Below are positions 5,405-64,000 of a stretch of DNA of 64,000 nt, piece after piece. A program made the translations under genes and the position numbers. This DNA comes from Candidatus Magasanikbacteria bacterium RIFCSPHIGHO2_01_FULL_33_34 (GTDB lineage Bacteria; Patescibacteriota; Patescibacteriia; Magasanikbacterales; UBA922): the NCBI GenBank assembly GCA_001782825.1, contig MFPS01000009.1:31770-95769 (forward strand), given 5' to 3'. The notes beneath the pieces are model-generated. The model worked only from the letters and a program-made list of their open reading frames with translations. It searched no databases and was not told where the DNA came from. The number at the start of each line of letters is the position of its first letter. Position 1 is the stretch's first letter.

Positions 5405-5806
5405 GCCATCTTGTTCATTATAAATGATCGCGTCACACTACTTGTGTGATGAGGAAAGTCCGAACTTCCTCTATTAAACCAGAAAAAATGTAGCGGGTAA
5501 TACCCGTCGGTGTACTGGTGACAGTACATTAGGGACAGTGCCACAGAGACTATACTAGTCCTAATTTATTAGGATAAAACGTGAAAAGAGTATGGAAGTT
5601 TTTATTCTTAAGACAAAAGCTACTATACTTCCTCCGCTATCCAGCGGGGGACGGTAAACCCTACATGGGAGAAAGAGCAGCGTTCTAATTTATTAGTTCG
5701 AAAAGTTAGCTCGTTTGAACTAAATAGCAATATTTAGTCTAGAGAAATGATCATTGCTTGATTTATCAAGTTACAAAATTCGGCTTACTGTAATGAACAA
5801 GATATA
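5405..5806 (+). ncRNA. rnpB: RNase P RNA (bacterial type A)
   Basis: Conserved P4 strands GAGGAAAGTCCGAAC (5') and ACAAAATTCGGCTTA (3'). Internal GGGTAATACCCG, CCACAGAGAC and GGTAAACCC motifs. P1 helix: 5408-5420 ATCTTGTTCATTA pairs with 5791-5803 TAATGAACAAGAT. Confidence 0.9.
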
Positions 5807-6087: not shown

Positions 6088-6942
6088 TTAGGCGGTGATG
6101 CCAAAACCTTCGAGTGTCACCTTCGCGACCCGCTTGCCAAGCTCCTCGTCCTTGAAGCGCTGGGCGTTGATGTACGGGCCAGAGCCGAAGAAGCCACTGT
6201 CGACCGAGAAGCCATGCACGGTACCGTTCATGATGGCCTCGAGCACTTCTTCCTCAGTCCAACTGTAGAGGTTGTTCTTCGGGTTGCGCACCTCTTCGGT
6301 CTGACCGACGAGATGGAAGAAGCTGGCTTCCTCCTTGAGATCGGTGAACACGAGCGGTTGGTTGTTGTAATACTTCCAGACGTTGCCGCGTTCGATGAGC
6401 TCGATCCACGACTCCTCGGCGCTGGTCGAACCGCCTTCCATGAACCGGACATCGTAAAACGGCCACGAAGAGCCGTCGTTACGACGCTGGTGCATGTGAT
6501 GGTAGTCGATACGGCCAATTGTCATCTCGTGCTCGCTACCGTCGTGCGGGAAGCGCACGCGGACCTTGTCCTGTTCCCAGACCTTGGTTTCCGGCAGATC
6601 GCCGAGGCGAACTTGCGGAGTGCGCAGTATGCCATCGGCTCCGCGGAGAGCGGCGTCGCGACGCTTCTCCTGGTCCTTGTCGACCATCTCGATTGACCAG
6701 TCGCCGGGAACGATGCGTCCGTCCGAGAGCCAGACTGACACCGCGCCCTTGCGATGATAGACGCCGGGCTGGTGCACGAGAACCCGAACGCGAGACTCGT
6801 AGATCACGGCATCATAGAAGCCACAAACAATACCCTTGGTGCCATCGGGGACATCATTGTAGATGTCCGTCCACGCACGGCGTTCGGGGTCAACCTTGAA
6901 GACAACTTCATCGCCAATCTGTAAAAGTTCAGTGAGTGTCAT
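6088..6942 (-). CDS. Hypothetical protein encoded by a strongly GC-rich (foreign-composition) gene; function unknown
   Basis: Uninterrupted ORF. Codon third positions are GC-rich, in sharp contrast to all neighbours. The likely start is MTLTELLQIGDEVVFKV at 6940-6942, because the upstream part of the tracked ORF is AT-rich. No recognizable family. Confidence 0.6.
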   Translation of the reverse strand: MTLTELLQIGDEVVFKVDPERRAWTDIYNDVPDGTKGIVCGFYDAVIYESRVRVLVHQPGVYHRKGAVSVWLSDGRIVPGDWSIEMVDKDQEKRRDAALRGADGILRTPQVRLGDLPETKVWEQDKVRVRFPHDGSEHEMTIGRIDYHHMHQRRNDGSSWPFYDVRFMEGGSTSAEESWIELIERGNVWKYYNNQPLVFTDLKEEASFFHLVGQTEEVRNPKNNLYSWTEEEVLEAIMNGTVHGFSVDSGFFGSGPYINAQRFKDEELGKRVAKVTLEGFGITA

Positions 6943-7199: not shown

Positions 7200-7287
7200 T
7201 GGTGCTCAGGAGAAGACTCGAACTTCCACAGGCATTACGCCCACAGGCCCCTCAAGCCTGCGTGTCTACCAATTTCACCACCTGAGC
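7200..7287 (-). tRNA. tRNA-Leu (anticodon GAG), class II with long variable arm, CCA encoded
   Basis: The reverse complement reads GCTCAGGTGGTGAAATTGGTAGACACGCAGGCTTGAGGGGCCTGTGGGCGTAATGCCTGTGGAAGTTCGAGTCTTCTCCTGAGCACCA. The 7-bp acceptor stem pairs. Anticodon stem CAGGC/GCCTG with loop TTGAGGG. T-arm GTTCGAGTC. Confidence 0.85.
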
Positions 7288-7480: not shown

Positions 7481-8248
7481 TCAAAACCGCCTATCTTTCC
7501 CAACAATCATCTCAATTCTATTTTTTGCCAACTTTATTACAATCTTTGTTTCCTTGGTTATAGTGCCATCAGCTTCCACTTGGAAAGGTTTACTTCCTGT
7601 AATAACCATTTCTTCAAATGGAAACAAACTCGGATCTTCATACTTATCACTAAACATTCCCTTGCCAGACATTGGACGTAAAAAAGCTTCCAATTTACCA
7701 TCTTGCGGATGGACAATAAAATCCTCTTTACCTTTTCTATTCCAGACAAATGGCTGTAAATTACAAACTACCAACTCCATTTTTTTGTGCTTTCCAAATA
7801 CTTTAAATTTTTCATCATACTCTACAGTTATATCACTCGCTGGAATATAAAGCTGAGAAATAAAATATCTATTGCGATTACTAATCCACCCAATATCTAA
7901 ATTAATTTTTCTTCTTTGAGAAAGCACATCACAAGCGTCCTCACCCTCTGGAATTCCCAAAACTTCTGCAATAGTATTTTTAGGTCCTACTGGCAAAAAA
8001 CCAAAAAGCACCCTACAGGCTGCTCCTCGAGACAAAACCCTGCCAAAAGTTTCATCATTTCCAACTATTACAATTACAGTAGCCCCTTTCTTAATTTCCT
8101 CTTCAATTATGGCTTCCGTATTTGTAAAATTTTGAAGTCTAATTATTTTACCTGCAATTTCAAAATCTGTCAACCTAGTCTCAATAGCTTTTACGGTTGA
8201 ATCAAATTTTTTACTTCTAAGGTAATTGTCATATAAATAAACATACAT
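7481..8248 (-). CDS. Diacylglycerol-kinase catalytic-domain (YegS/BmrU-like lipid kinase) family protein, degenerate GGDGT motif
   Basis: ATVIVIVGNDETFGRVL aligns to the DAGK_cat (I/V)VxGGDGT region, but the motif reads GNDET. Overall length and layout fit the YegS-like family. Confidence 0.5.
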   Translation of the reverse strand: MYVYLYDNYLRSKKFDSTVKAIETRLTDFEIAGKIIRLQNFTNTEAIIEEEIKKGATVIVIVGNDETFGRVLSRGAACRVLFGFLPVGPKNTIAEVLGIPEGEDACDVLSQRRKINLDIGWISNRNRYFISQLYIPASDITVEYDEKFKVFGKHKKMELVVCNLQPFVWNRKGKEDFIVHPQDGKLEAFLRPMSGKGMFSDKYEDPSLFPFEEMVITGSKPFQVEADGTITKETKIVIKLAKNRIEMIVGKDRRF

Positions 8249-8278
8249 AAATCAGTCATATACCAGTTACAATCCAAA

Positions 8279-8743
8279 TTATTTATCTTTTTTATCATCA
8301 TCTTTAACAATTCCTCTGATTAATCCAGATTTTTTATCACTTTTTGGGTCATCTATTTCCAATCCTTTCATTGTAACTTTTCCCCTGATTAATGCACCAG
8401 CTTCAATTACCAAGACACCACACTCAATATCCCCTAAAACTTGCGCAGTTGAAGTAAGCTCAAGTCTATCATCAACTTTTACATTACCTTTAACAACTCC
8501 AGAAACTACAGCATTACCAGCTTTTACACTTGCTAAAACTTTAGAACCTTTCTCAGATGTAAATAATTTACTAGTTTTTACATTTCCAGACACAATACCT
8601 TTTACCAAAATATTACCTTCTGAAGAAAAATCACCTTCTACGTGTACTGATGGGCCAACCACAGTCTCTACATCATCATGTTGTTTTGTATGCTGTGCAT
8701 TAATTTGAGACTCTGATTCGCTATAATTTGGTTTTTGAAACAT
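8279..8743 (-). CDS. Bactofilin (DUF583, CcmA-like cytoskeletal polymer)
   Basis: Repeated beta-helical GN(I/V)xVxGxVxGNV segments (GNILVKGIVSGNVKTS, GNAVVSGVVKGNVKVD, LVIEAGALIRGKV). Start chosen at MFQKPNY; the tracked ORF extends to 8797. Confidence 0.75.
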   Translation of the reverse strand: MFQKPNYSESESQINAQHTKQHDDVETVVGPSVHVEGDFSSEGNILVKGIVSGNVKTSKLFTSEKGSKVLASVKAGNAVVSGVVKGNVKVDDRLELTSTAQVLGDIECGVLVIEAGALIRGKVTMKGLEIDDPKSDKKSGLIRGIVKDDDKKDK

Positions 8744-8846
8744 ATATAATAGATTAAATAATATAAATATATTACAACAATTACAACTATTTTGCAACTA
8801 TACAAAATAATTAATTATTTATTATTTTGTTATATTGAGAATCAAA

Positions 8847-10478
8847 TTACAAACATTGATCCTTCTGTTTTAATGGGATTTTAAAGCCAAATTCTCCACC
8901 CTTACCAAGACCATCACTTTTTGCCCACACTTGTCCATTATGTTTTTCAACAAACTTCTTAGTCACATAAATTCCAAGTCCAGTACCGCCAACATTGGTA
9001 TTTTTAACATTTTTACCACGATAAAACTTTTGAAAAAAGTTTACTTCATCTGATTTATCAAAACCAATACCATTATCTTTAACTTTCACTTTTATATTAC
9101 TTCCAACAACTTCAGCTGATACATTGATTAAACCTCTTTCACTATACTTTATTGCATTATCAATAAAATTAAAAACTACATGACGAATTTTTTCATCATC
9201 CATACATACATCTAACTTTGTTTTGTCTGGCTTCCACACAATCTTTAGACCTTTGTCTTTTGCGCGTTGAGTCATTTCTTGGACTACACTTGTAATCAAT
9301 TCATTCATATCATGAATTTCAAAACTAAATTTAGTCCTATCTTGTTCAATTCTAGAAATATCCAAAAACTCATCAATCAATTTAACCAATCTTTCATTTG
9401 TTTCATCCATATCACCCAATATACTCTTTGTCTTCACAGTAATCTTCCCATATGCCCCATCTTGTATAAGCTCAATATATCCCTTGATAATAGATATAGG
9501 TGTACGAAGTTGATGAGAAGCAATAGAGAGAAATTCTGTCTTTTGACGATCTAATTCCTGTAGACGCAAATTGGCAGTCTCAAGTGATTTTGCAAGATGT
9601 AACAATTTTTCATTTTGTTGCACTTCTTTTCTAACACTTTGTATTAACAAAATACCAACACTTAAAATCAAAAGAAACAAAGAGCCTTTATAAAAAATAG
9701 TGACCAAATCATTAGAAGTTATCACTTCAAAAAGTACAGCTACAGATAAACCAATCACCAAAAATTCAGTAGAAACCACTTTTATATTCATCAACTTATG
9801 TCTTACAATCGCATAATATGTAAAAAATAAAAATGGTAAACTAAATGCCGCGCCAAATGTAACAAAATTAGAATTACCAAAAAAAGTAGGCAAAATTAAA
9901 CTAAAAATTAATATTAAAAAAATTGTTAAAAAAAATCCTATTAAAACAAAACTCAATGATCTGCGTTGTAATTTTGGTGATCTTAATATTTTCAGTATAA
10001 AAACAATTACACCTGACAAATTTAAACCAACCGCAGTCATTACAAACAAAAATATAAATGGTCCATTTATAACCCTAGATACCCTAACACCATTAAATTC
10101 CATTACTTCTTTAAAAATTAATGGTGTTAAAGTTAATATCGCAATAGTTATTACAAATGGTAACAAAAAAAATTTATAAAATTTAGGAATCATTTTTTTC
10201 TTTTCAGGGAAAACATAAAGTAAGTGAAAAGTAAAAAATGAATGCCAAACTGCCAAAAAAATTGTAGTTCTCAATAACCAAATCACTACATTCGGATCCA
10301 AAAATTTATAAGTTAAATAATTGAATCCATTATAAAGAATAGTAAAAATTGATAATAATAAAAATGCTTTGTTTGTAGTACTAGATTTATTATTAAAATA
10401 AATCAAAAAACCCAAAATAGCTATACCCGTTATAGCTAACCCTACGATAAATAAATCCGTATTTACAACCAAATTCAT
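8847..10478 (-). CDS. Sensor histidine kinase with an N-terminal domain of about 8-9 TM helices (HisKA + HATPase_c); no response regulator adjacent
   Basis: H-box SIASHQLRTPISIIKGYIELI. N-box and G-boxes NFIDNAIKYS, DNGIGF, GGTGLGIYVTKKFVEKHNGQVWAKS. Long hydrophobic N-terminal half. Confidence 0.85.
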   Translation of the reverse strand: MNLVVNTDLFIVGLAITGIAILGFLIYFNNKSSTTNKAFLLLSIFTILYNGFNYLTYKFLDPNVVIWLLRTTIFLAVWHSFFTFHLLYVFPEKKKMIPKFYKFFLLPFVITIAILTLTPLIFKEVMEFNGVRVSRVINGPFIFLFVMTAVGLNLSGVIVFILKILRSPKLQRRSLSFVLIGFFLTIFLILIFSLILPTFFGNSNFVTFGAAFSLPFLFFTYYAIVRHKLMNIKVVSTEFLVIGLSVAVLFEVITSNDLVTIFYKGSLFLLILSVGILLIQSVRKEVQQNEKLLHLAKSLETANLRLQELDRQKTEFLSIASHQLRTPISIIKGYIELIQDGAYGKITVKTKSILGDMDETNERLVKLIDEFLDISRIEQDRTKFSFEIHDMNELITSVVQEMTQRAKDKGLKIVWKPDKTKLDVCMDDEKIRHVVFNFIDNAIKYSERGLINVSAEVVGSNIKVKVKDNGIGFDKSDEVNFFQKFYRGKNVKNTNVGGTGLGIYVTKKFVEKHNGQVWAKSDGLGKGGEFGFKIPLKQKDQCL

Positions 10479-55956: not shown

Positions 55957-58900
55957 TTATTCTTCTATTCTACCTTCTACTGCATCTCTTTCATCTTTTT
56001 CTTTTTGTTTTTCAGCTCTCAATTCTTCTGTTGAAACATAATTTCCATTATCTACTTTTGATAACAATTTAACATCCAAACACAATCCTTTAAGCTCACG
56101 AACTAATACATTAAATGATTCTGGCAAATTAACTTTGGTAATTCTTTCACCTTTAATAATTGCTTCATAAGCTTTACTACGTCCTGGAACATCATCTGAT
56201 TTGATAGTCAAAATTTCTTGCAAAGTATGAGCTGCGCCATAAGCTTCCAATGCCCAAACTTCCATCTCTCCAAATCTCTGTCCACCAAATTGAGCTTTAC
56301 CACCAAGAGGTTGTTGGGTAATCAAACTATATGAACCAATTGATCTTTGGTGAATTTTATCTTCAACCATGTGATTTAACTTCAACATGTAGTTATAACC
56401 AACCGTTGTTTTGTGAGCAAAAGATTCACCAGTTCTACCATCATATAATTGGACTTTACCATCAGTTGGCATACCCGCTTTTTTTAACTCTTCTTTGATT
56501 TGACTTTCTGTAATTCCATTCAAAGCTGGTGTAGCTACTTTGTATCCAAGAGCATTAGCTGCCAATCCCAAATGAGTTTCAAGTAACTGCCCCAAATTCA
56601 TACGAGAAACAACTCCTAATGGAGAAAGAATAATATCTACCGGTGTTCCATCTTCCAAAAATGGCATATCTTCTACCGGCACTACTCTAGAAATTACACC
56701 TTTGTTTCCATGACGACCAGCCATCTTGTCACCAACTTGAATTTTACGAAGATCAGCTACTGTAACTTGGACTTGTTTCATCACACCCGGTTGCAATTTG
56801 TCACCACTCTCAGTTGTAAATACTTCAATATTTATTACTTTACCTTGTTCACCATGTTCCAAATAAAGTGATGAATCACGAACATCTCTTGCTTTCTCAC
56901 CAAAGATTGCTCGAAGTAATCTTTCTTCAGAAGTAAGTTCTGTTTCACCTTTTGGAGTAATCTTACCGACAAGAATATCACCTGAGTGAACTTCAGCTCC
57001 AACTCGGACTACTCCTTCTGAATCAAGGTTCTTTAATTTTTCTTCGGATACATTTGGAATATCTGAAGTAACTACTTCAGAACCAAGTTTTGTTTCACGA
57101 ACATCGGTTGCATAATCTTCAATATGGACTGAAGTATAATTATCATTTTGTACCAATCTTTCAGAAACAATAATAGCATCTTCGTAGTTATATCCATCCC
57201 ATACCATATAAGCAACCAATACATTCTGACCCAATGCTAATTCACCATTTTGAATAGATGGTCCATCACACAATACATCGCCTTTTTTAACACTGTCATC
57301 CAACTTTACAAGCGGTCTTTGATTGATTGAACTTGATGCATTTGAACGAATAAACTTATTCATTCTATATACATCAGTTTTTCCATGAGAAGTTATTTCA
57401 ATTTTATTGCCATCAACTGCGGTTACTTTACCATCTCTCTTTGCCAAAATTGCATGCCCACTATTTTGTGCAGCCTTGCCTTCAATACCAGTACCCACAA
57501 TCGGTGAATCTGGATTAATACAAGGTACAGCCTGTCTTTGCATGTTTGTTCCCATCAATGCGCGAGTAGCATCATCATGTTCCAAAAAAGGAATCAAGCT
57601 TGTAGCTACACTCAAAATCTGATTGGAAGCAATATCCAAATAATCAATCTTATCAACTTCAACAATAGTCGGCTGACCACCAACACGAGCTGGAACTCTC
57701 ACTCCAGAAAGAATTGCATTTTCATTCATTGGGGTAGTTGCACTAGCTGTAACAACTCTTTCTTCCTCAAATGAATTAAGATAAACAATCTCATTAGTTG
57801 CGCGTGCTTTAACAGCAATAGTTTTTAAATCTTTTTTAGCTTCAAGTTTTTTAGCAATTTCTGCGGTGATTTTTTCACCCACTTTTACAATTCCACTTAC
57901 ATCTACTCTTGCGATTTCATCTTTTGAAAATCTAGCTTCATTTGGCACATCATGAATAACTTTTCTATAAGGTGTTTCTACAAAACCAAAACTATTAACT
58001 TTTGCAAAAGTCGACAAATGACCCACAAGACCAATATTTGGTCCTTCAGGTGTAGCAATTGGACAAATTCTTCCATAGTGAGTAGTGTGTACATCACGTA
58101 CTTCAAACCCTGCTCTGTCTCGTGATAAACCACCAGGTCCAAGGGCACTAATACGTCTTTTGTGTTCAAGTTCAGCCAATGGATTGATCTGATCCATGAA
58201 TTGTGACAATTGTGAGCTCATAAAGAATTCACGAACCGCCCCAATCACCGGTCTTGCATTGATAAGTTTATTTGGATTTAAACTCTCAATATCATAAGTA
58301 CTCATTCTATCTTTTACAATACGCTCCATACGAGCCATACCTACACGAAATCTATTTTGAACCAATTCACCAACAGAACGAACACGACGATTTCCTAAAT
58401 GATCAATATCATCTGGTTCATCTTGACTCACATTCAAACGAACCACTTCTTTCAAAACATTTACTAATTTTTCTGGTGACAATACTCTTTGTTCTTTTGA
58501 GTCAAAACCTTTTTCATCCAAACCAAGTTTAAATTTTGTATTAAATTTATATACACCAACTTTTCCCAAATCATAACGTTCAAAATTGAAGAACATCGCA
58601 TGAATCAATCCGCGTGCATTATCTGCTGTAGCCAAATCACCTGGTCGAATTCTTTTGTATACTTCAATCAAACCATCATCTTCATTGGTAGCGATATCTT
58701 TTTCTAATGTATTTTCAATATATTTTATATTTGGATGAATATCAACATCTACAAATGCTTTTAGTATTTCTTCATCCGTACTCATACCAAATGCCCGCAA
58801 AAGAGAAGTGGCGGCTACTTTTCTTTTTCTATCAACTTTAATCCAAATTACATTATTTTGATCAGTTTCAACTTCAATCCATGCCCCACGATTTGGGATA

Positions 58901-59385
58901 ATTTTACTACCATAATATCTTCTACCACGAACTGACTCTGCAGTAAAAAACGCACCTGGACTACGAATAAGCTGAGAAACAACTACACGCTCAATTCCAT
59001 TTACCACAAAAGTACCACGATCAGTCATTACCGGAATATCTCCCAAATAAATTTCTTGCTTGTCTTCTTTTTTGGTACGCTTGTTAACCAATCTAGCCAC
59101 TACACGCAATGGCGCTTCAAAAGTAATATTTTTTTCTCTACAAGTTACTTCATCAAACTTTGGGTCATCTATAAAATAATCTTCAAAATATAATTCCAAA
59201 TCTCTACCTGTAAAATCTGTTATAGGAGAAACTTCTTCAAATAACTCTTTCATACCTCCATCAAAAAACCATTTGTATGATTCTTTTTGTGCCTCAATTA
59301 AATCAGGCAAAGGGATTCTATCACGTATATCTGTAAAAAACTTTCGTTCAAGACTCTTGGTTGGTTGACGTTTGAATGCCGGCAT
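55957..59385 (-). CDS. rpoB: DNA-directed RNA polymerase subunit beta
   Basis: Characteristic rifampicin-cluster and C-terminal catalytic blocks, 1142 aa. Immediately upstream of rpoC. Confidence 0.97.
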   Translation of the reverse strand: MPAFKRQPTKSLERKFFTDIRDRIPLPDLIEAQKESYKWFFDGGMKELFEEVSPITDFTGRDLELYFEDYFIDDPKFDEVTCREKNITFEAPLRVVARLVNKRTKKEDKQEIYLGDIPVMTDRGTFVVNGIERVVVSQLIRSPGAFFTAESVRGRRYYGSKIIPNRGAWIEVETDQNNVIWIKVDRKRKVAATSLLRAFGMSTDEEILKAFVDVDIHPNIKYIENTLEKDIATNEDDGLIEVYKRIRPGDLATADNARGLIHAMFFNFERYDLGKVGVYKFNTKFKLGLDEKGFDSKEQRVLSPEKLVNVLKEVVRLNVSQDEPDDIDHLGNRRVRSVGELVQNRFRVGMARMERIVKDRMSTYDIESLNPNKLINARPVIGAVREFFMSSQLSQFMDQINPLAELEHKRRISALGPGGLSRDRAGFEVRDVHTTHYGRICPIATPEGPNIGLVGHLSTFAKVNSFGFVETPYRKVIHDVPNEARFSKDEIARVDVSGIVKVGEKITAEIAKKLEAKKDLKTIAVKARATNEIVYLNSFEEERVVTASATTPMNENAILSGVRVPARVGGQPTIVEVDKIDYLDIASNQILSVATSLIPFLEHDDATRALMGTNMQRQAVPCINPDSPIVGTGIEGKAAQNSGHAILAKRDGKVTAVDGNKIEITSHGKTDVYRMNKFIRSNASSSINQRPLVKLDDSVKKGDVLCDGPSIQNGELALGQNVLVAYMVWDGYNYEDAIIVSERLVQNDNYTSVHIEDYATDVRETKLGSEVVTSDIPNVSEEKLKNLDSEGVVRVGAEVHSGDILVGKITPKGETELTSEERLLRAIFGEKARDVRDSSLYLEHGEQGKVINIEVFTTESGDKLQPGVMKQVQVTVADLRKIQVGDKMAGRHGNKGVISRVVPVEDMPFLEDGTPVDIILSPLGVVSRMNLGQLLETHLGLAANALGYKVATPALNGITESQIKEELKKAGMPTDGKVQLYDGRTGESFAHKTTVGYNYMLKLNHMVEDKIHQRSIGSYSLITQQPLGGKAQFGGQRFGEMEVWALEAYGAAHTLQEILTIKSDDVPGRSKAYEAIIKGERITKVNLPESFNVLVRELKGLCLDVKLLSKVDNGNYVSTEELRAEKQKEKDERDAVEGRIEE

Positions 59386-59955
59386 AAATTAATTAATTAT
59401 ATTATTTATTTTAAAATTATTTAAATTTAACTGAGATAACAAAAAAATCGACTTTTACAAAAAGCCGTGCAACGTTAATTCATTTTTAGGTAATTCGCGT
59501 ATGGCATGGGTTTTGACAATCCCGCACTTGCAGGTCCACCTAGTCCCAAGTATGGAAACTGGCAGTTTTGACTTATGACCATGTCTTTCTTCTCTCCGTG
59601 TATAGACACGACTGCCGAAGTGAGGAGCAGATTATTAGACAAGGACGCGTTTTATATATGAACTGACAAGTAAGTATAATAACTAAACTTAACTAAATTT
59701 TATACTCAATTGACTATTCATATTCCAATGTTCATAAGCATACAAGATTTTAATTGTATTGTCAAATAGAACATAACAGATTTATTATGTCAAGAAACAA
59801 TCTTTTTTGGCTAATTTTAGGTAATTTTAAACAAATATTAGAATTATAAGTATAAAAACTTATCCACACATACATATTAAATGAAAAAACTCTAATAATT
59901 GACTAATCAATACCAATAATATATGCTTGGACTCAACACTAACAAGGTGGTCAAT

Positions 59956-60144
59956 ATGCGTTGGCTGATGAATTATCTGCGTGAAGTATTTTGTAAACAC
60001 GATTGGGAGCGTGAAGAAGTAAAGGCTACATTAAAAGATACATATACAGGAGATTACAAAACAGATATACGTGTATCCTCTACCTGTAAAAAATGTGGTT
60101 ACCACAAATCATACTGGAAGTATCTTAAATACCTAGGAGATTAA
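59956..60144 (+). CDS. Small Cys/His-containing protein (possible zinc-ribbon), 62 aa, function unknown
   Basis: Start placed at MRWLMNYL, preceded by AAGGTGG 5 nt upstream. Contains FCKHDW...CKKCGYH. Stop overlaps the next start (TAAAATG). Confidence 0.45.
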   Translation: MRWLMNYLREVFCKHDWEREEVKATLKDTYTGDYKTDIRVSSTCKKCGYHKSYWKYLKYLGD

Positions 60145-60145
60145 A

Positions 60146-60415
60146 ATGCTCAGACGAATAGCTAAAAAAACTGCTAATTGGCTTGATCACAATCCAAACT
60201 ATTCACCCTACATACCTCTTTCAATTGCTATTATTGCTTTGTTAACATTGCTTCTAGCAATATGTGGTATAGTAGATTTAACCAAGATATTTGTAGGTAC
60301 AACCGCTGTTATATCGTGGTTTCTATTTAATAGAGTAGCTACTCCTTACCACAAGCCAAATACAACAACCACAGAAGAAGAAAAAACTGACACAAATGAT
60401 CAAAAACCCATATAG
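60146..60415 (+). CDS. Small two-TM membrane protein, 89 aa, translationally coupled to the preceding ORF
   Basis: Two hydrophobic helices (LSIAIIALLTLLLAICGIV, VGTTAVISWFLF). Followed by hairpin GAGCA..TGCTC + T8 at about 60426-60464. Confidence 0.45.
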   Translation: MLRRIAKKTANWLDHNPNYSPYIPLSIAIIALLTLLLAICGIVDLTKIFVGTTAVISWFLFNRVATPYHKPNTTTTEEEKTDTNDQKPI

Positions 60416-60661
60416 ACCAAAAGTGCTGAGCACACTCTAAAATGCTCTTTTTTTTATAAATAACTTTTTTGGTTAAAAATTAATTCTTTCGTATATAATA
60501 CTCAATACCTTGACAAAAAAATATAAATAATATAAAATGTGATCTTCTTTGCTTAATATACTAAATAAAGAAAAGAGGAAACACCAAAATAGCGCACGCG
60601 GACCAGATTGTGTAGTGGTAGTACCAACGTAGTACAACGTTGTAAATACCCGGAGACACAA

Positions 60662-61054
60662 ATGCTGAATCCATTCAAAGCTACCATTTCTATCCTGTGT
60701 GTAATTGCATTTACCACTAACGCAATCGCACAAGACAATGGTCCAATCCTTATCAGTAAAGAGGACTGTGCAAAACTACAATTCATAAAGTATGATGCCC
60801 AACAAGACCTAAATGAAACCAAAAACCGATGTGATGCCGGTGTATACTCATCAACAACCTGCCATTTTTTGGCAAAACTGTATAGTGAAATTATCGAAGA
60901 AGCAACAAGATTGTACGAGGTATTCTGCCATTCGTACTCAGCTAAAGATACCATGCAATGGCAAACCATTAGGGATCTCGACACAATCAAGGAATACGAT
61001 GCATTGATGTTCGCCCTCAACGACATGTTGAGCCCGAACACCTTCCAGCCGTAA
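60662..61054 (+). CDS. Secreted small Cys-containing protein, paralog A (signal peptide; conserved C-terminus ...DLDTIKEYDALMFALNDMLSPNTFQP)
   Basis: Start MLNPFKATISILCVIAFTTNAIA (signal-peptide-like). The C-terminal 45 aa are about 85-100% identical to the 61978-62460 product. The antisense ORF 60553..61080 is rejected. Confidence 0.6.
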   Translation: MLNPFKATISILCVIAFTTNAIAQDNGPILISKEDCAKLQFIKYDAQQDLNETKNRCDAGVYSSTTCHFLAKLYSEIIEEATRLYEVFCHSYSAKDTMQWQTIRDLDTIKEYDALMFALNDMLSPNTFQP

Positions 61055-61158
61055 CAAAGATCTGGCCCTAATCGCGACAAGCTCGCAATACGGGTCGATC
61101 TTACGGCGCGACAGCCCTAGCCAACACCAAGTACTGGTGTTGGCAGGGCTGTTTTTTT
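60968..61158 (+). repeat. 190-bp direct repeat (3' coding end + UTR + terminator), copy 1. The last 140 nt or so are near-identical to copy 2.
   Basis: Direct comparison with 62376-62568. Only 2 substitutions in the last ~140 nt (caac/cgac and ggtc/ggcc). Confidence 0.85.
61112..61158 (+). terminator. Strong rho-independent terminator (17-bp stem with one bulge, T7), copy 1 of duplicated 3' module
   Basis: CAGCCCTAGCCAACACCA-agtac-TGGTGTTGGCAGGGCTG + TTTTTTT. Confidence 0.8.
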
Positions 61159-61260
61159 ATTCATGAATTCAGCAATTACCCCAACCTATTGACAAAAAAG
61201 GATTTTTCATGTAGACTCTCCAACAGCTTTTAGCAAACCGATTTCAAATGGAGATTCACC

Positions 61261-61887
61261 ATGAATCGCTATACCTTAGGGATACTGATACCTGTCGTCG
61301 TGGTAATCATTACGATTTGTACTTTTTCTAGTGATGATTACTCATCTGTTGTTGATATCAACTCACAACAGATCACAAAACCATCTGGACTACCAAACAA
61401 GTCCGCAACAAAAAAAATAAGATCAAAACGGTTTTTCCGATTTTTCTTTCGATACACAGCATCTCCCCCAAAAAATGATGTGTTAAAAGTATATATGGAA
61501 GAAGTTGCAGAAAACGAGATCAACTCGATTCTGGATACTGACTCCATAAGTGAAGAAAAAAGAGATTTTCTAGAAAAATCACAAGGATTAATTGCCCAAA
61601 AAAACTCCTTGCAAAAAGCTGAATTGGGCGCGTACGATGCCATTTCTGACCCAGACCAAAGAGAAGCTTTCAAGAAAGCTTTTCAACAAAAAATCATCGA
61701 TCTAGATGAAATCACCTACCAAATAGCTACTGGTAAGCTCACACAAGAAGAAGGTCGTGCAAAGAAAAAAGAAATCAACGACCGCTTCACCGATAAAGAG
61801 CAACTAGAAATACCAGAAGATGAACTTGTAAAAATAAAGCGAGTTCAAGTAAATAGTTTCATCAAAACCTATGAAAGGAGGGAGTGA
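61261..61887 (+). CDS. Hypothetical membrane-anchored protein (N-terminal TM, charged coiled C-terminal region)
   Basis: GGAG RBS-like sequence before the ATG. TM LGILIPVVVVIITICTF. Lies between the two secreted paralogs. Confidence 0.5.
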   Translation: MNRYTLGILIPVVVVIITICTFSSDDYSSVVDINSQQITKPSGLPNKSATKKIRSKRFFRFFFRYTASPPKNDVLKVYMEEVAENEINSILDTDSISEEKRDFLEKSQGLIAQKNSLQKAELGAYDAISDPDQREAFKKAFQQKIIDLDEITYQIATGKLTQEEGRAKKKEINDRFTDKEQLEIPEDELVKIKRVQVNSFIKTYERRE

Positions 61888-61977
61888 CAAGAGAGCGCAC
61901 GAGTGTTAAATTGTGTAGTGGCAGTACCCCACGCAGTATTGAGTAGTAAAACCAGTAATGACGAGAGGCACGCCACA

Positions 61978-62460
61978 ATGGGAAAGAGCATGAAAACATC
62001 TGGACTGATCTGCATGATCATCATGTTCATGTCAGTCAGTTCAGCCATGGCTGCGGACGACACCTCGTTGTCCGAAACCAACAAACTGGCGCTCCAACAG
62101 TTGTTGGGTGACAACACAAGCGCCCAAGACAACGGTGGATACTCTGAGCTGGAGAAGACCTGCAAGATGCTCTGGGATGCCAAAGGGCATGCCCAAATCC
62201 AGCTTGACGACTGGACATACAACTGTAGCTTCGGGGATATCTCTCAATTCACCTGCAACTACTGGATCTCGTATTACACCGACATGCGCGACAAGGCGCA
62301 AGCGTTGTACAAGTTCTGGAAGTGTGCAGACCACTTCGGACCGTCTAGGACCTCCACGTGGTCTGAAGGGTCAATCGGAGATCTCGACACTATCAAGGAA
62401 TACGACGAGCTGGTGTTCGCCCTCGACGACATGTTGAGCCCGAACACCTTCCAGCCGTAA
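61978..62460 (+). CDS. Secreted small Cys-containing protein, paralog B (GC-rich codon usage)
   Basis: Start MGKSMKTSGLICMIIMFMSVSSAMA (signal peptide). C-terminus DLDTIKEYDELVFALDDMLSPNTFQP. 4+ Cys. Confidence 0.6.
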   Translation: MGKSMKTSGLICMIIMFMSVSSAMAADDTSLSETNKLALQQLLGDNTSAQDNGGYSELEKTCKMLWDAKGHAQIQLDDWTYNCSFGDISQFTCNYWISYYTDMRDKAQALYKFWKCADHFGPSRTSTWSEGSIGDLDTIKEYDELVFALDDMLSPNTFQP

Positions 62461-62568
62461 CAAAGATCTGGCCCTAATCGCGACAAGCTCGCAATACGGG
62501 CCGATCTTACGGCGCGACAGCCCTAGCCAACACCAAGTACTGGTGTTGGCAGGGCTGTTTTTTTTATT
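62376..62568 (+). repeat. 190-bp direct repeat, copy 2
   Basis: See copy 1. Confidence 0.85.
62518..62565 (+). terminator. Strong rho-independent terminator, copy 2 (identical hairpin, T8)
   Basis: Same 17-bp bulged stem as 61112-61158. Confidence 0.8.
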
Positions 62569-62643
62569 TTTAAACTTTATATTTTTAAAAAATTAAATGA
62601 TTTCACTATTGACTTTTACTCAAAAATTGTATAGTGTATACTC

Positions 62644-63153
62644 GTGAAAAATGGACAAAAGAAGATGGTCGTCTTCACGGCTCCACTAAACCCAAGCTTT
62701 CCACCAGGAACCGAAATACCCCAAAGCGTAATTAAAGTTATTGAAGATCTCCCAAGGACAAACTCATTAACTGTGGCAGAGGCAATAGATAAAATCCATA
62801 AACAAATGAAAGAAGAAAGGATTGCGATCACCAAAGCAATTCAGGATTCATACATCAAATCAATAATCATTTCAGAAGTGTCAAGTAAAAAATGGTATAC
62901 TTTAGCCTACGGTGATAATCTAGATAATAAATCTTTAATGGAAATCACAGAACAATTATCACATGATCCAACTATACTACGTGAACCAACCCAAAGAGAA
63001 ATAGACACAGTTCGCCAACTAGAAGTTGATTTTCATATATGGAATCAACCAAATAGAACTTATCCTTCAACTGGTCTAATAATGGTTGAATTTAAATGTG
63101 GTGATGATTTTATAATAGTAGGCATTCTTATAGACTATAAACCAGCCATATAG
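62644..63153 (+). CDS. Hypothetical protein (169 aa), no recognized family
   Basis: Clean ORF. Preceded by TTGACT...TATAGT promoter-like sequence (62610-62636). Followed by hairpin CCCAGCT-caacca-AGCTGGG at about 63194-63213. Confidence 0.45.
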   Translation: MKNGQKKMVVFTAPLNPSFPPGTEIPQSVIKVIEDLPRTNSLTVAEAIDKIHKQMKEERIAITKAIQDSYIKSIIISEVSSKKWYTLAYGDNLDNKSLMEITEQLSHDPTILREPTQREIDTVRQLEVDFHIWNQPNRTYPSTGLIMVEFKCGDDFIIVGILIDYKPAI

Positions 63154-63304
63154 CAAAAAAAGCTACCATACAAGTTCGTTTTCACAGACAAAGCCCAGCT
63201 CAACCAAGCTGGGTGTTAAATTTTATAACTAATATATACAAAATAAATAAGCAAAATTAACATTAATATATCCCCTAATTTAGCCTATTTTACCCCAACA
63301 CCAC

Positions 63305-63333
63305 TTGACAAATTAACCTAAATATGGTACTAT
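63305..63333 (+). promoter_or_regulatory. Near-consensus sigma70 promoter (TTGACA, 17 nt, TACTAT)
   Basis: TTGACA at 63305-63310, TACTAT at 63328-63333. Same CACTTGACAAA context as the rnpB promoter. Confidence 0.6.
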
Positions 63334-63339
63334 GATCCG

Positions 63340-63672
63340 TTATCCAGATGGCGTCTCTGAACTGAATGAAATGGCCTAGAAATGATCGCCTTAGAAAATA
63401 CAGCCTAGACGCCCAAAGGATAATGCCCGTGATCGGGGGAATATATATGATATATCGTATATAATCTTCCTCTCACGGCCCTAAGACCTAGTCCGCTAGG
63501 TCACACAGGTGGAGAGGCAGTTTTAAAAATAACTGTCCCGCTTACGCGGGAAGAAGTATTGACGACACAATACAATAGTCTCTGTAAAAAGAGTTTAACT
63601 ACGATTGTGTTGTATAGATATTTCTCACGAACCACCCCACCCGCCGTCAGGCGGGTGGGGTGGTTTTATTTT
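63340..63672 (+). ncRNA. Candidate structured non-coding RNA (about 330 nt, identity unresolved) between a consensus promoter and a strong terminator
   Basis: No ORF above a few codons. Nested helices: CCGTTATCC/GGATAATG, GGCGTCT/AGACGCC, CCTCTCAC/GTGGAGAGG and GACCTAG-tccg-CTAGGTC. Further hairpins CCCG-tgat-CGGG, CAGTT..AACTG and TCCCGC-ttac-GCGGGA. Confidence 0.45.
63632..63670 (+). terminator. Strong rho-independent terminator (14-bp GC stem CCACCCCACCCGCC/GGCGGGTGGGGTGG, T-run)
   Basis: Read directly. Ends the ORF-less transcript about 100 nt before the ftsK ATG. Confidence 0.8.
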
Positions 63673-63768
63673 ATAGTTTGAGCAATTCCAATATTAATGA
63701 TAAAATAGAGATTAGACAATACAAAAATCGTTTTTTTGTATTTTCAAATTTATTTATTACTTTCAATT

Positions 63769-64000
63769 ATGAGTAGAAAAAGAAAACAAACACAGTTTGA
63801 TCCAGCACTCTCCAAAGGAATATTATCTGTTATCCTACTTGTACTCTCAATCATAATTATTTTAAGCTTTTTTGATCAAGCTGGTCCACTTGGATATATT
63901 TTAAATAAAGGAATATTAAGCTTTCTATTTGGATCAATTAGATATGCAAGTCCATTTGTTATCTTAACCATCGCTTGGTTTCTCATAAAAGACAAAGACT
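63769..64000 (+). CDS. ftsK: DNA translocase FtsK/SpoIIIE, N-terminal (membrane) part; runs off the window
   Basis: MSRKRKQTQFDPALSKGILSVILLVLSIIIILSFF...GPLGYIL..FLFGSIRYASPFVILTIAWFL is typical of the FtsK N-terminus. Confidence 0.65.
   Translation, partial: MSRKRKQTQFDPALSKGILSVILLVLSIIIILSFFDQAGPLGYILNKGILSFLFGSIRYASPFVILTIAWFLIKDKD

Follow-up and report, generated by a model that had tools for sequence, protein, structure and literature searches.

Two diverged, predicted secreted paralogs with a near-identical 3' module in a species-specific insert beside rpoB of a Candidatus Magasanikbacteria bacterium

Bacteria of the Candidate Phyla Radiation (CPR, or Patescibacteria) are believed to spend their lives on the surface of other microbes. 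If so, exported proteins that are peculiar to single lineages are among the first candidates for making these contacts; to our knowledge, almost none of them has been characterised. Orphan secreted proteins encoded in variable islets occur in these and in other host-associated bacteria. Concerted evolution of bacterial paralogs through gene conversion is known from tufA/tufB, the rRNA operons, and the pilin and opa loci. Both situations resemble a locus in the 64,000-nt stretch of DNA analysed here (the window; contig MFPS01000009.1, positions 31,770 to 95,769 of the forward strand, assembly GCA_001782825.1) from Candidatus Magasanikbacteria bacterium RIFCSPHIGHO2_01_FULL_33_34. Two genes, designated A and B, encode small Cys-containing proteins with signal-peptide-like N-termini and end in an almost identical 3' module. 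As a family they are new, but as a lineage-specific gene pair they are of a familiar sort. Taken as a whole, the explanation that seems rather probable to us is that A and B are old orphan paralogs residing in a foreign insert, that their 3' ends have undergone gene conversion and that their common leader is transcribed.

Like the orphan secreted proteins of variable islets, A and B have a predicted Sec signal peptide, a small size, no homologs, a foreign composition and a location in a species-variable slot with core genes on its flanks. This category is descriptive and not a family; no sequence or fold in common with A and B can be claimed for it, and no pili, secretion-system or other known host-interaction genes were seen in the A/B islet. 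As in the examples of concerted evolution, the near-identical tract lies in diverged paralogs, in direct orientation and ~1.4 kb apart, covers unconstrained sites and contains an apparent polymorphism common to the two copies. Unlike in those examples, the tract is limited to the 3' coding end, the untranslated region (UTR) and the terminator, whereas the bodies of the genes are saturated with differences; moreover, there is no evidence of programmed or antigenic variation, nor of a silent cassette reservoir. The locus overturns nothing in current understanding. It offers an insert that is peculiar to the species, cleanly bounded and matched by an empty site in one relative; a predicted exported orphan pair whose conserved C-terminal module can be tested for a binding partner; and, probably, a small natural case of 3'-end concerted evolution. 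The two genes and their 3' modules are arranged as follows (GC3, GC content at third codon positions):

60652 to 60655, plus strand: Shine-Dalgarno sequence GGAG of gene A
60662 to 61054, plus strand: gene A, 130 residues; predicted signal peptide 1-23 (cleaved between AIA and QDNG); acidic mature part of 107 residues; Cys 36, 57, 67 and 89
60974 to 61158, plus strand: 3' module, copy A; last 27 codons, hairpin 1 (61057-61102), terminator hairpin (61110-61153) and U-run
61978 to 62460, plus strand: gene B, 160 residues; predicted signal peptide 1-25 (cleaved between AMA and ADD); Cys 62, 83, 93 and 116; GC3 0.74
62380 to 62564, plus strand: 3' module, copy B; last 27 codons, hairpin 1 (62463-62508), terminator hairpin (62516-62559) and U-run

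The alignment of A with B (BLASTP E 2e-24) shows 41% identity across the whole mature part, with the four Cys in register, and confirms the two genes, at the sequence level, as true paralogs that are homologous along the entire mature protein. The Cys spacing is C-20-C-9-C-21-C in A and C-20-C-9-C-22-C in B, all indels comprise whole codons, and the C-terminal 26 residues are common to both. The original prediction, in which the proteins diverge in the middle and converge at the C-terminus, has to be corrected in this respect. Gene B contains an additional segment of 24 residues after the signal peptide, followed by a motif found in both proteins, NxxAQDNG; this motif is located at the predicted signal-peptidase site in A and 24 residues beyond such a site in B. 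In the variable mature region, the proportions of synonymous (pS) and non-synonymous (pN) differences are 0.78 and 0.51, respectively (Nei-Gojobori). Since synonymous sites are saturated, the duplication is old by this measure. Over the 12 codons with which the conserved tract begins (DLDTIKEYDxLx), pN is only 0.069 against a pS of 0.585, which indicates that the C-terminal peptide is constrained as a protein.

Open reading frames (ORFs) on the minus strand had been put forward as possibly the conserved ones. The frame that corresponds in B to the minus-strand ORF spanning A is interrupted by three stop codons. This broken frame, together with the whole-codon indels, the aligned Cys and a pN far below pS, identifies the plus-strand genes as the real ones.

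In composition, both genes lie above the AT-rich background, as was predicted. The window has a GC content of ~33%, and its long ORFs have a mean GC3 of 0.23 +/- 0.09. For gene B, the GC content is 0.52 and the GC3 is 0.74; for gene A, the GC3 is 0.46, or 0.375 outside the 3' tract. These GC3 figures support the view that the A/B cassette is foreign-looking; judged by composition, the islet as a whole is foreign-looking as well, and is horizontally acquired.

No relatives of A and B were identified. An exhaustive profile search among 1.84e9 representative proteins and a word-indexed search with B among 5.8e9 clusters returned only A and B themselves, and the C-terminal 26 residues were carried by no other protein in these protein searches. 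Pfam, NCBIfam, PHROGs and PADLOC contained zero families matching A or B. A profile search of the PDB gave a best E of 0.34, and Foldseek against PDB and BFVD gave best E values of 0.57 to 1.6, without a fold match; the PMEI entries, at E 3 to 5, are noise. Nothing was obtained when metagenome and viral contigs were scanned with back-translated patterns, nor in blastn and tblastn searches against phages and plasmids. Within a genome contig collection that does not include the source genome, an 18-mer of the leader had 13 single matches in unrelated taxa, which is the chance level; in viral contigs, the leader had two chance matches. The terminator pattern was encountered neither in metagenome contigs, which apparently do not include the source contig, nor in viral contigs. 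A literature search on small Cys-rich secreted proteins of CPR bacteria found nothing relevant. On the basis of these searches, the A/B family is restricted to one groundwater Candidatus Magasanikbacteria species. The predicted cassette-like arrangement of leader, coding sequence, 3'UTR and terminator around putatively exported small Cys proteins is thus present, but to call it a family is generous, as it has two members only.

The 3' direct repeat (60974-61158 versus 62380-62564) is 185 nt long with eight mismatches (96% identity). Its last 151 nt (61008-61158), which consist of 14 codons and a 106-nt 3'UTR with two hairpins including the terminator, differ at only two positions (61019 A/G and 61095 T/C), in close agreement with the ~190-nt duplication with two substitutions near its end that had been described. 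The folding energies are -53.7 kcal/mol (z -7.6) for copy A and -56.4 kcal/mol (z -8.2) for copy B. In both copies, the terminator has a GC-rich stem of 19 bp with one bulge followed by U7-8, as is typical of an intrinsic terminator; a simple terminator scan missed both of them because of the stem bulge. The 36-nt terminator core occurs exactly twice in the window. Rho-independent terminators with stabilising 3'UTR hairpins are similar in that a GC-rich stem and U-run are preceded by a second hairpin. The A/B module differs from ordinary terminators in that its UTR is unusually long, is the same in the two paralogs apart from one position and belongs to no known RNA family.

Between the last 14 codons of A and B, no synonymous difference is present, and the UTR contains a single substitution (61095 T, 62501 C), which exchanges a G.U for a G-C pair in the stem of hairpin 1. 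The ~35 UTR positions that are unpaired in the predicted fold, about a third, are all identical. Recent, and probably ongoing, gene conversion between A and B would be an economical explanation for the near-identity of the last ~150 nt, since loops, linkers and third codon positions are identical, and selection at the level of structure would not freeze those. Of the two options named in the original prediction, recent duplication or gene conversion, the latter is the one to be retained; with a pS of 0.78 the duplication is not recent, and only the last ~150 nt would have been homogenised recently. Gene A is most likely the recipient of a GC-rich, B-like sequence, because its GC3 of 0.38 outside the tract gives way to 0.81 within it, and each of the last 14 codons has G or C in third position. 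The T/C alleles of the UTR are swapped in other samples: contig L007 carries C at 61095 and contig L008 carries T at 62501. The difference thus appears polymorphic in both copies across samples, which fits the predicted 3' exchange between them.

The signal peptides, which had been predicted from the sequence, were judged by simple in-house rules (positively charged n-region, hydrophobic core of 10-15 residues, AXA at -3/-1 within ~20-30 residues of the start). By these rules, both N-termini are of the Sec, signal peptidase I type: in A, K6 precedes a hydrophobic core at 8-18 and AIA before Q at 23/24; in B, the corresponding elements are K3/K6, residues 9-20 and AMA before A at 25/26. A lipobox ([LVI][ASTVI][GAS]C) was identified neither in A (SILC) nor in B (GLIC), the -1 residue being L or I and not G, A or S. 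The mature proteins also contain no cell-wall or membrane anchor motif; hence, they are probably released or loosely associated with the surface.

For full-length B, AlphaFold2 returned an all-helical model with a mean predicted local distance difference test (pLDDT) score of 60. The model of the mature domain scores better (pLDDT 71.8; core 78-87), with helices at 8-38, 45-68, 71-80 and 94-108. In the predicted fold, a long antiparallel hairpin of helices precedes two shorter helices. C38 and C48 flank the hairpin loop in this model, and C17 and C71 are located at its far end. Two disulfides probably hold the hairpin together, one between the first and the fourth Cys and the other between the second and the third, a pairing that was derived from helix register and not from coordinates. 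Such an arrangement is reminiscent of disulfide-stapled hairpins like the twin CX9C CHCH proteins, the plant alpha-hairpinins and the PMEI-type four-helix bundles, as the four Cys could cross-link two antiparallel helices at both ends. The spacing in A and B is much longer than CX9C or CX3C, no significant sequence or structure match exists, and the likeness is geometric only.

Upstream of both genes lies a conserved leader, as predicted. Its two copies, the neighbouring promoters and the gene between A and B (gene M) are located as follows:

60510 to 60538, plus strand: sigma-70-type promoter of A (TTGACA, 17 nt, TAAAAT; 11/12)
60570 to 60640, plus strand: leader copy A; AGCGCACG at 60591-60598, ATTGTGTAGTGGTAGTACC at 60607-60625, AGTA at 60620 and 60631
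61189 to 61217, plus strand: sigma-70-type promoter of M (TTGACA, 17 nt, TAGACT)
61261 to 61887, plus strand: gene M, 208 residues, orphan; its last five codons overlap the start of the homology of the B unit
61873 to 61945, plus strand: leader copy B; AGCGCACG at 61894-61901, ATTGTGTAGTGGCAGTACC at 61910-61928, five AGTA repeats

The repeated part (60570-60625 versus 61873-61928) is 56 nt long and 73% identical, with AGCGCACG and the exact 19-mer core ATTGTGTAGTGGNAGTACC as common elements. Even with three mismatches allowed, this 19-mer has only two sites in the window (0.05 expected). The block cannot be coding, because the frame of the 19-mer, counted from the in-frame start codons upstream, differs between the two copies. 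It had been read as a promoter of the form TTGTGT/17 nt/YAGTAY (TAGTAC). This candidate is weak: it falls below the scan threshold of at least 9/12, and the promoter at 60510-60538, the best match in 59400-64000, lies ~60 nt upstream of the leader core of A and would place the block in the transcript. Leader A is thus probably situated inside a 5'UTR of ~115 nt. Between M and B, neither a terminator-like site nor a T-run was detected. The promoter at 61189-61217 probably drives an M-B operon, with leader B as the intercistronic region. A role at the RNA level fits better in view of the consensus promoter upstream of block A and the missing terminator between M and B, and the leader more probably serves within the transcripts, as a 5'UTR or intercistronic element, than as a promoter. 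For its function, control of translation, processing or binding of a regulator is favoured.

AGTA is enriched in the leader, with five occurrences in copy B (shuffle p = 2e-4) and two in copy A (p = 0.07). The repeats are spaced by ~11-12 nt (61923-61957 and 60620-60634), and the first two of them occupy conserved positions (YAGTAC-N6-7-YAGTAY); the array may be a protein-binding repeat. Neither for the 5' block nor for the 3'UTR did Rfam give a match at the gathering threshold in the region, and the sole match at E <= 5 (22.6 bits) is antisense and terminator-like.

The membrane protein gene that had been noted between A and B is gene M. Its product has a single N-terminal hydrophobic anchor followed by a Lys/Glu-rich domain of ~180 residues (34 K+R, 34 D+E).

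A and B belong to an insert between rpoB and ftsK:

55957 to 59385, minus strand: rpoB, with rpoC alongside it
59878 to 63297, plus strand: insert of 3.4 kb with six small orphan genes, in the order 73-aa ORF, 89-aa membrane ORF, A, M, B and 169-aa ORF
downstream of the 169-aa ORF: GC-rich non-coding block, then ftsK, a helix-turn-helix (HTH) gene and recA

The rpoB loci of relatives at 83-91% RpoB identity were compared by blastn, and the modules were searched in nine loci. The order rpoC-rpoB ... ftsK-HTH-recA is kept in the relatives wherever the retrieved contig reaches. Likewise conserved, with 68-78% identity, are the non-coding blocks on either side of the insert (59388-59877, the rpoB leader, and 63298-63707). 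The segment in between (59878-63297), including A, M and B, is absent from the related species compared, and no copy of the leader or of the 3' module was found in the nine loci. In L031, the two conserved blocks are separated by ~16 nt, which corresponds to an empty site. The slot between rpoB and the second block, which holds a candidate non-coding RNA (ncRNA), is occupied differently in other relatives. L029 and L030 have a 1.1-kb spacer, L026 has ~700 nt of CACCTAAT-type tandem repeats (~8950-9640), L025 has a different GC-rich cargo (8200-9460; 50-57% GC) with a 207-aa repeat protein and a 91-aa ORF, and L028 has an unrelated signal-peptide-bearing Cys-rich protein of 181-252 aa (8405-9163). 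The 91-aa protein of L025, ending in ...TDYQP, was considered as a diverged homolog of A and B and rejected (hhalign probability 0.2%). With an empty site in one relative and different cargo in others, this comparison marks the interval between the rpoB leader and the ncRNA as an insertion hot spot and the A-M-B islet as peculiar to its species.

In the explanation that we prefer, A and B would be old, diverged orphan paralogs, each encoding an acidic protein of ~12 kDa exported by Sec, within an insert at the hot spot that is bounded by the rpoB leader on one side and, ahead of ftsK, by the conserved ncRNA gene on the other. The common leader would impose the same post-transcriptional control on both mRNAs, and the 3' hairpins would terminate transcription and probably stabilise both transcripts. 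The proteins would act outside the cell, for example by interacting with a host cell or with M. A more far-reaching version, in which leader and 3' module are portable handles to capture, swap and homogenise genes for secreted surface-interaction proteins at this hot spot, as a variable-effector system of an episymbiont with the AGTA leader bound by a dedicated RNA-binding regulator, is speculative and very improbable.

Several points weigh against the preferred explanation. A possible promoter of B (61884-61912; GTGACA-17-TAAATT, 9/12) overlaps leader B, and the block may have a role at the DNA level, as promoter or operator. The swapped T/C alleles could result from an assembler mixing the 185-nt repeats, at which contigs break. 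With two copies in one species, conversion is not strictly separable from nucleotide-level selection on the 3' module. Within the source genome, the search for extra copies covers the window, and beyond it the relatives and the collections. Finally, the structure models depend on alignments of two to four sequences and are of moderate confidence, and the signal peptides depend on the simple in-house rules.

Such selection is the essence of another explanation, which makes the 3' module, perhaps together with the leader, a functional RNA in itself, e.g., a small RNA derived from the 3'UTR or an element bound by a regulator, kept identical for its function. The very stable, non-random fold, the structure-preserving nature of the sole UTR substitution and the AGTA enrichment of leader B are in line with it. 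It does not account for the identity of the unpaired UTR positions and of the synonymous sites of the last 14 codons, while synonymous sites are saturated elsewhere; there is also no Rfam match, and no copy elsewhere in the window, the relatives or the scanned collections. We regard this explanation as unlikely. Somewhat less likely still is the idea, suggested by the original prediction, that A and B are secreted toxins or effectors resembling bacteriocins, to which M would be the immunity or partner protein. A and B are indeed small, predicted to be exported, Cys-containing and lineage-specific, and they lie in a variable, acquired islet with the membrane-anchored M encoded between them; both population variants in A and B are non-synonymous, but the contigs were retrieved because they encode variants. 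Nothing supports M as an immunity or partner protein: a single anchor with a charged domain of ~180 aa is unlike the usual small multi-pass or cytosolic immunity proteins. The toxin reading itself also finds no support, as neither PADLOC, Pfam, NCBIfam and PHROG nor any toxin fold matched, and the islet lacks a double-glycine leader, an ABC exporter and a modification enzyme. Mature A and B are acidic, unlike most membrane-active bacteriocins. A class II bacteriocin locus, which is recognised by a double-glycine or Sec leader, a cationic peptide of <10 kDa, an immunity gene, and an ABC exporter or accessory gene, was rejected in particular, with mature proteins of 107-135 aa that are acidic, no GG leader, no transporter in the islet and no family match.

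The conserved ends around a variable middle, the insertion hot spot and the 3' hairpin are also what a mobile or recombination cassette would present, be it integron-like with an attC site, of the miniature inverted-repeat transposable element (MITE) or repetitive extragenic palindromic (REP) type, or built from the repeats of a diversity-generating retroelement (DGR). An attC site requires R''(RYYYAAC)...R'(GTTRRRY) at the base of the hairpin and a nearby intI. Here, AGCCAAC and GTTGGCA mismatch the consensus and, by eye, sit in the inner and not the outer stem, the hairpin is followed by a U-run as in an intrinsic terminator, and no integrase is encoded among the islet ORFs. A MITE or REP element is at odds with the presence of two copies only, both attached to paralogous genes. 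In a DGR, repeat differences are restricted to template adenines and a reverse transcriptase is adjacent; the eight differences are not adenine-specific (A>T, T>C three times, C>A, A>G three times; four of the eight involve an A in copy A), and the islet ORFs include no reverse transcriptase gene. As no further protein ends in the 26 shared residues either, a mobile cassette is highly improbable. An artefact, either spurious ORFs or a duplicated or collapsed assembly, is the kind of error to be expected where GC-rich DNA in an AT-rich genome gives long ORFs on both strands and some contigs end inside the repeat. Several short metagenome contigs do so (L005 starts at ~61126, L007 ends at 62480 and L009 at 62470, in window coordinates), a behaviour that a genuine 185-nt repeat would show when assembled from short reads. 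The two copies keep their layout in 23 contigs, which stem from independent samples and different assemblers; contigs measuring 95, 197 and 247 kb are among these, as is the 1.17-Mb contig of the species. This rules out the assembly artefact that had been raised; moreover, conservation between the copies is confined to the plus frame, which has signal-peptide-like starts, aligned Cys and whole-codon indels. The chance that an artefact is involved is hence minimal. Identical DNA is also present in GCA_001782955.1 (MFQG01000004.1) and in several Rifle-aquifer metagenomes.

Among the other genes of the insert, the 73-aa ORF (59923-60144, plus strand) has a CxxC zinc-ribbon-like motif and matches several PHROG families without assigned function weakly (best E 4e-5), a hint of a phage-derived small gene. 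The rpoB leader comprises ~490 nt of non-coding DNA (59388-59877, minus strand); the identity to six related contigs is 68-78%. The only perfect TTATCCACA, the DnaA-box consensus, of the window lies at the distal edge of this leader (59860-59868) and is kept in L031 and L026. A replication origin at the switch between rpoB and ftsK was considered and discarded: DnaA boxes are not enriched (28 versus 27 expected), and the GC skew tracks gene orientation. The DnaA-box site is probably not oriC.

A second foreign-looking island of the window consists of a 284-aa ORF (6088-6942, minus strand; GC 0.58, GC3 0.74) between the 3' ends of the RNase P RNA (5412-5803) and a tRNA-Leu (7200-7287). It has no match in Pfam, PHROG, NCBIfam or PADLOC. 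A 14-mer in common with the A/B islet (AGCGCACGCGGACC, 6552-6565) does not link the two, being one of many 14-mers and at chance level (E 0.66). A distant tblastn match was identified on the Rhizobium leguminosarum plasmid NZ_CP140867.1 (31% over 61%, E 2e-11), and this relative indicates that the genome does acquire genes from high-GC bacteria.

The ncRNA candidate next to the islet may be of more general interest. It is located between the islet and ftsK (63336-63675, plus strand), measures ~330 nt, and is conserved and structured; in L025, a HAD hydrolase is encoded between it and ftsK. It corresponds to no Rfam family and is not a transfer-messenger RNA. The candidate is preceded by a putative promoter (63305-63333; TTGACA-17-TACTAT) and contains a strong terminator (63629-63666). 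In L026 and L025, it is 70-71% conserved, promoter included, and among these three sequences RNAalifold predicts 98 pairs, of which 12 show double changes that compensate each other.

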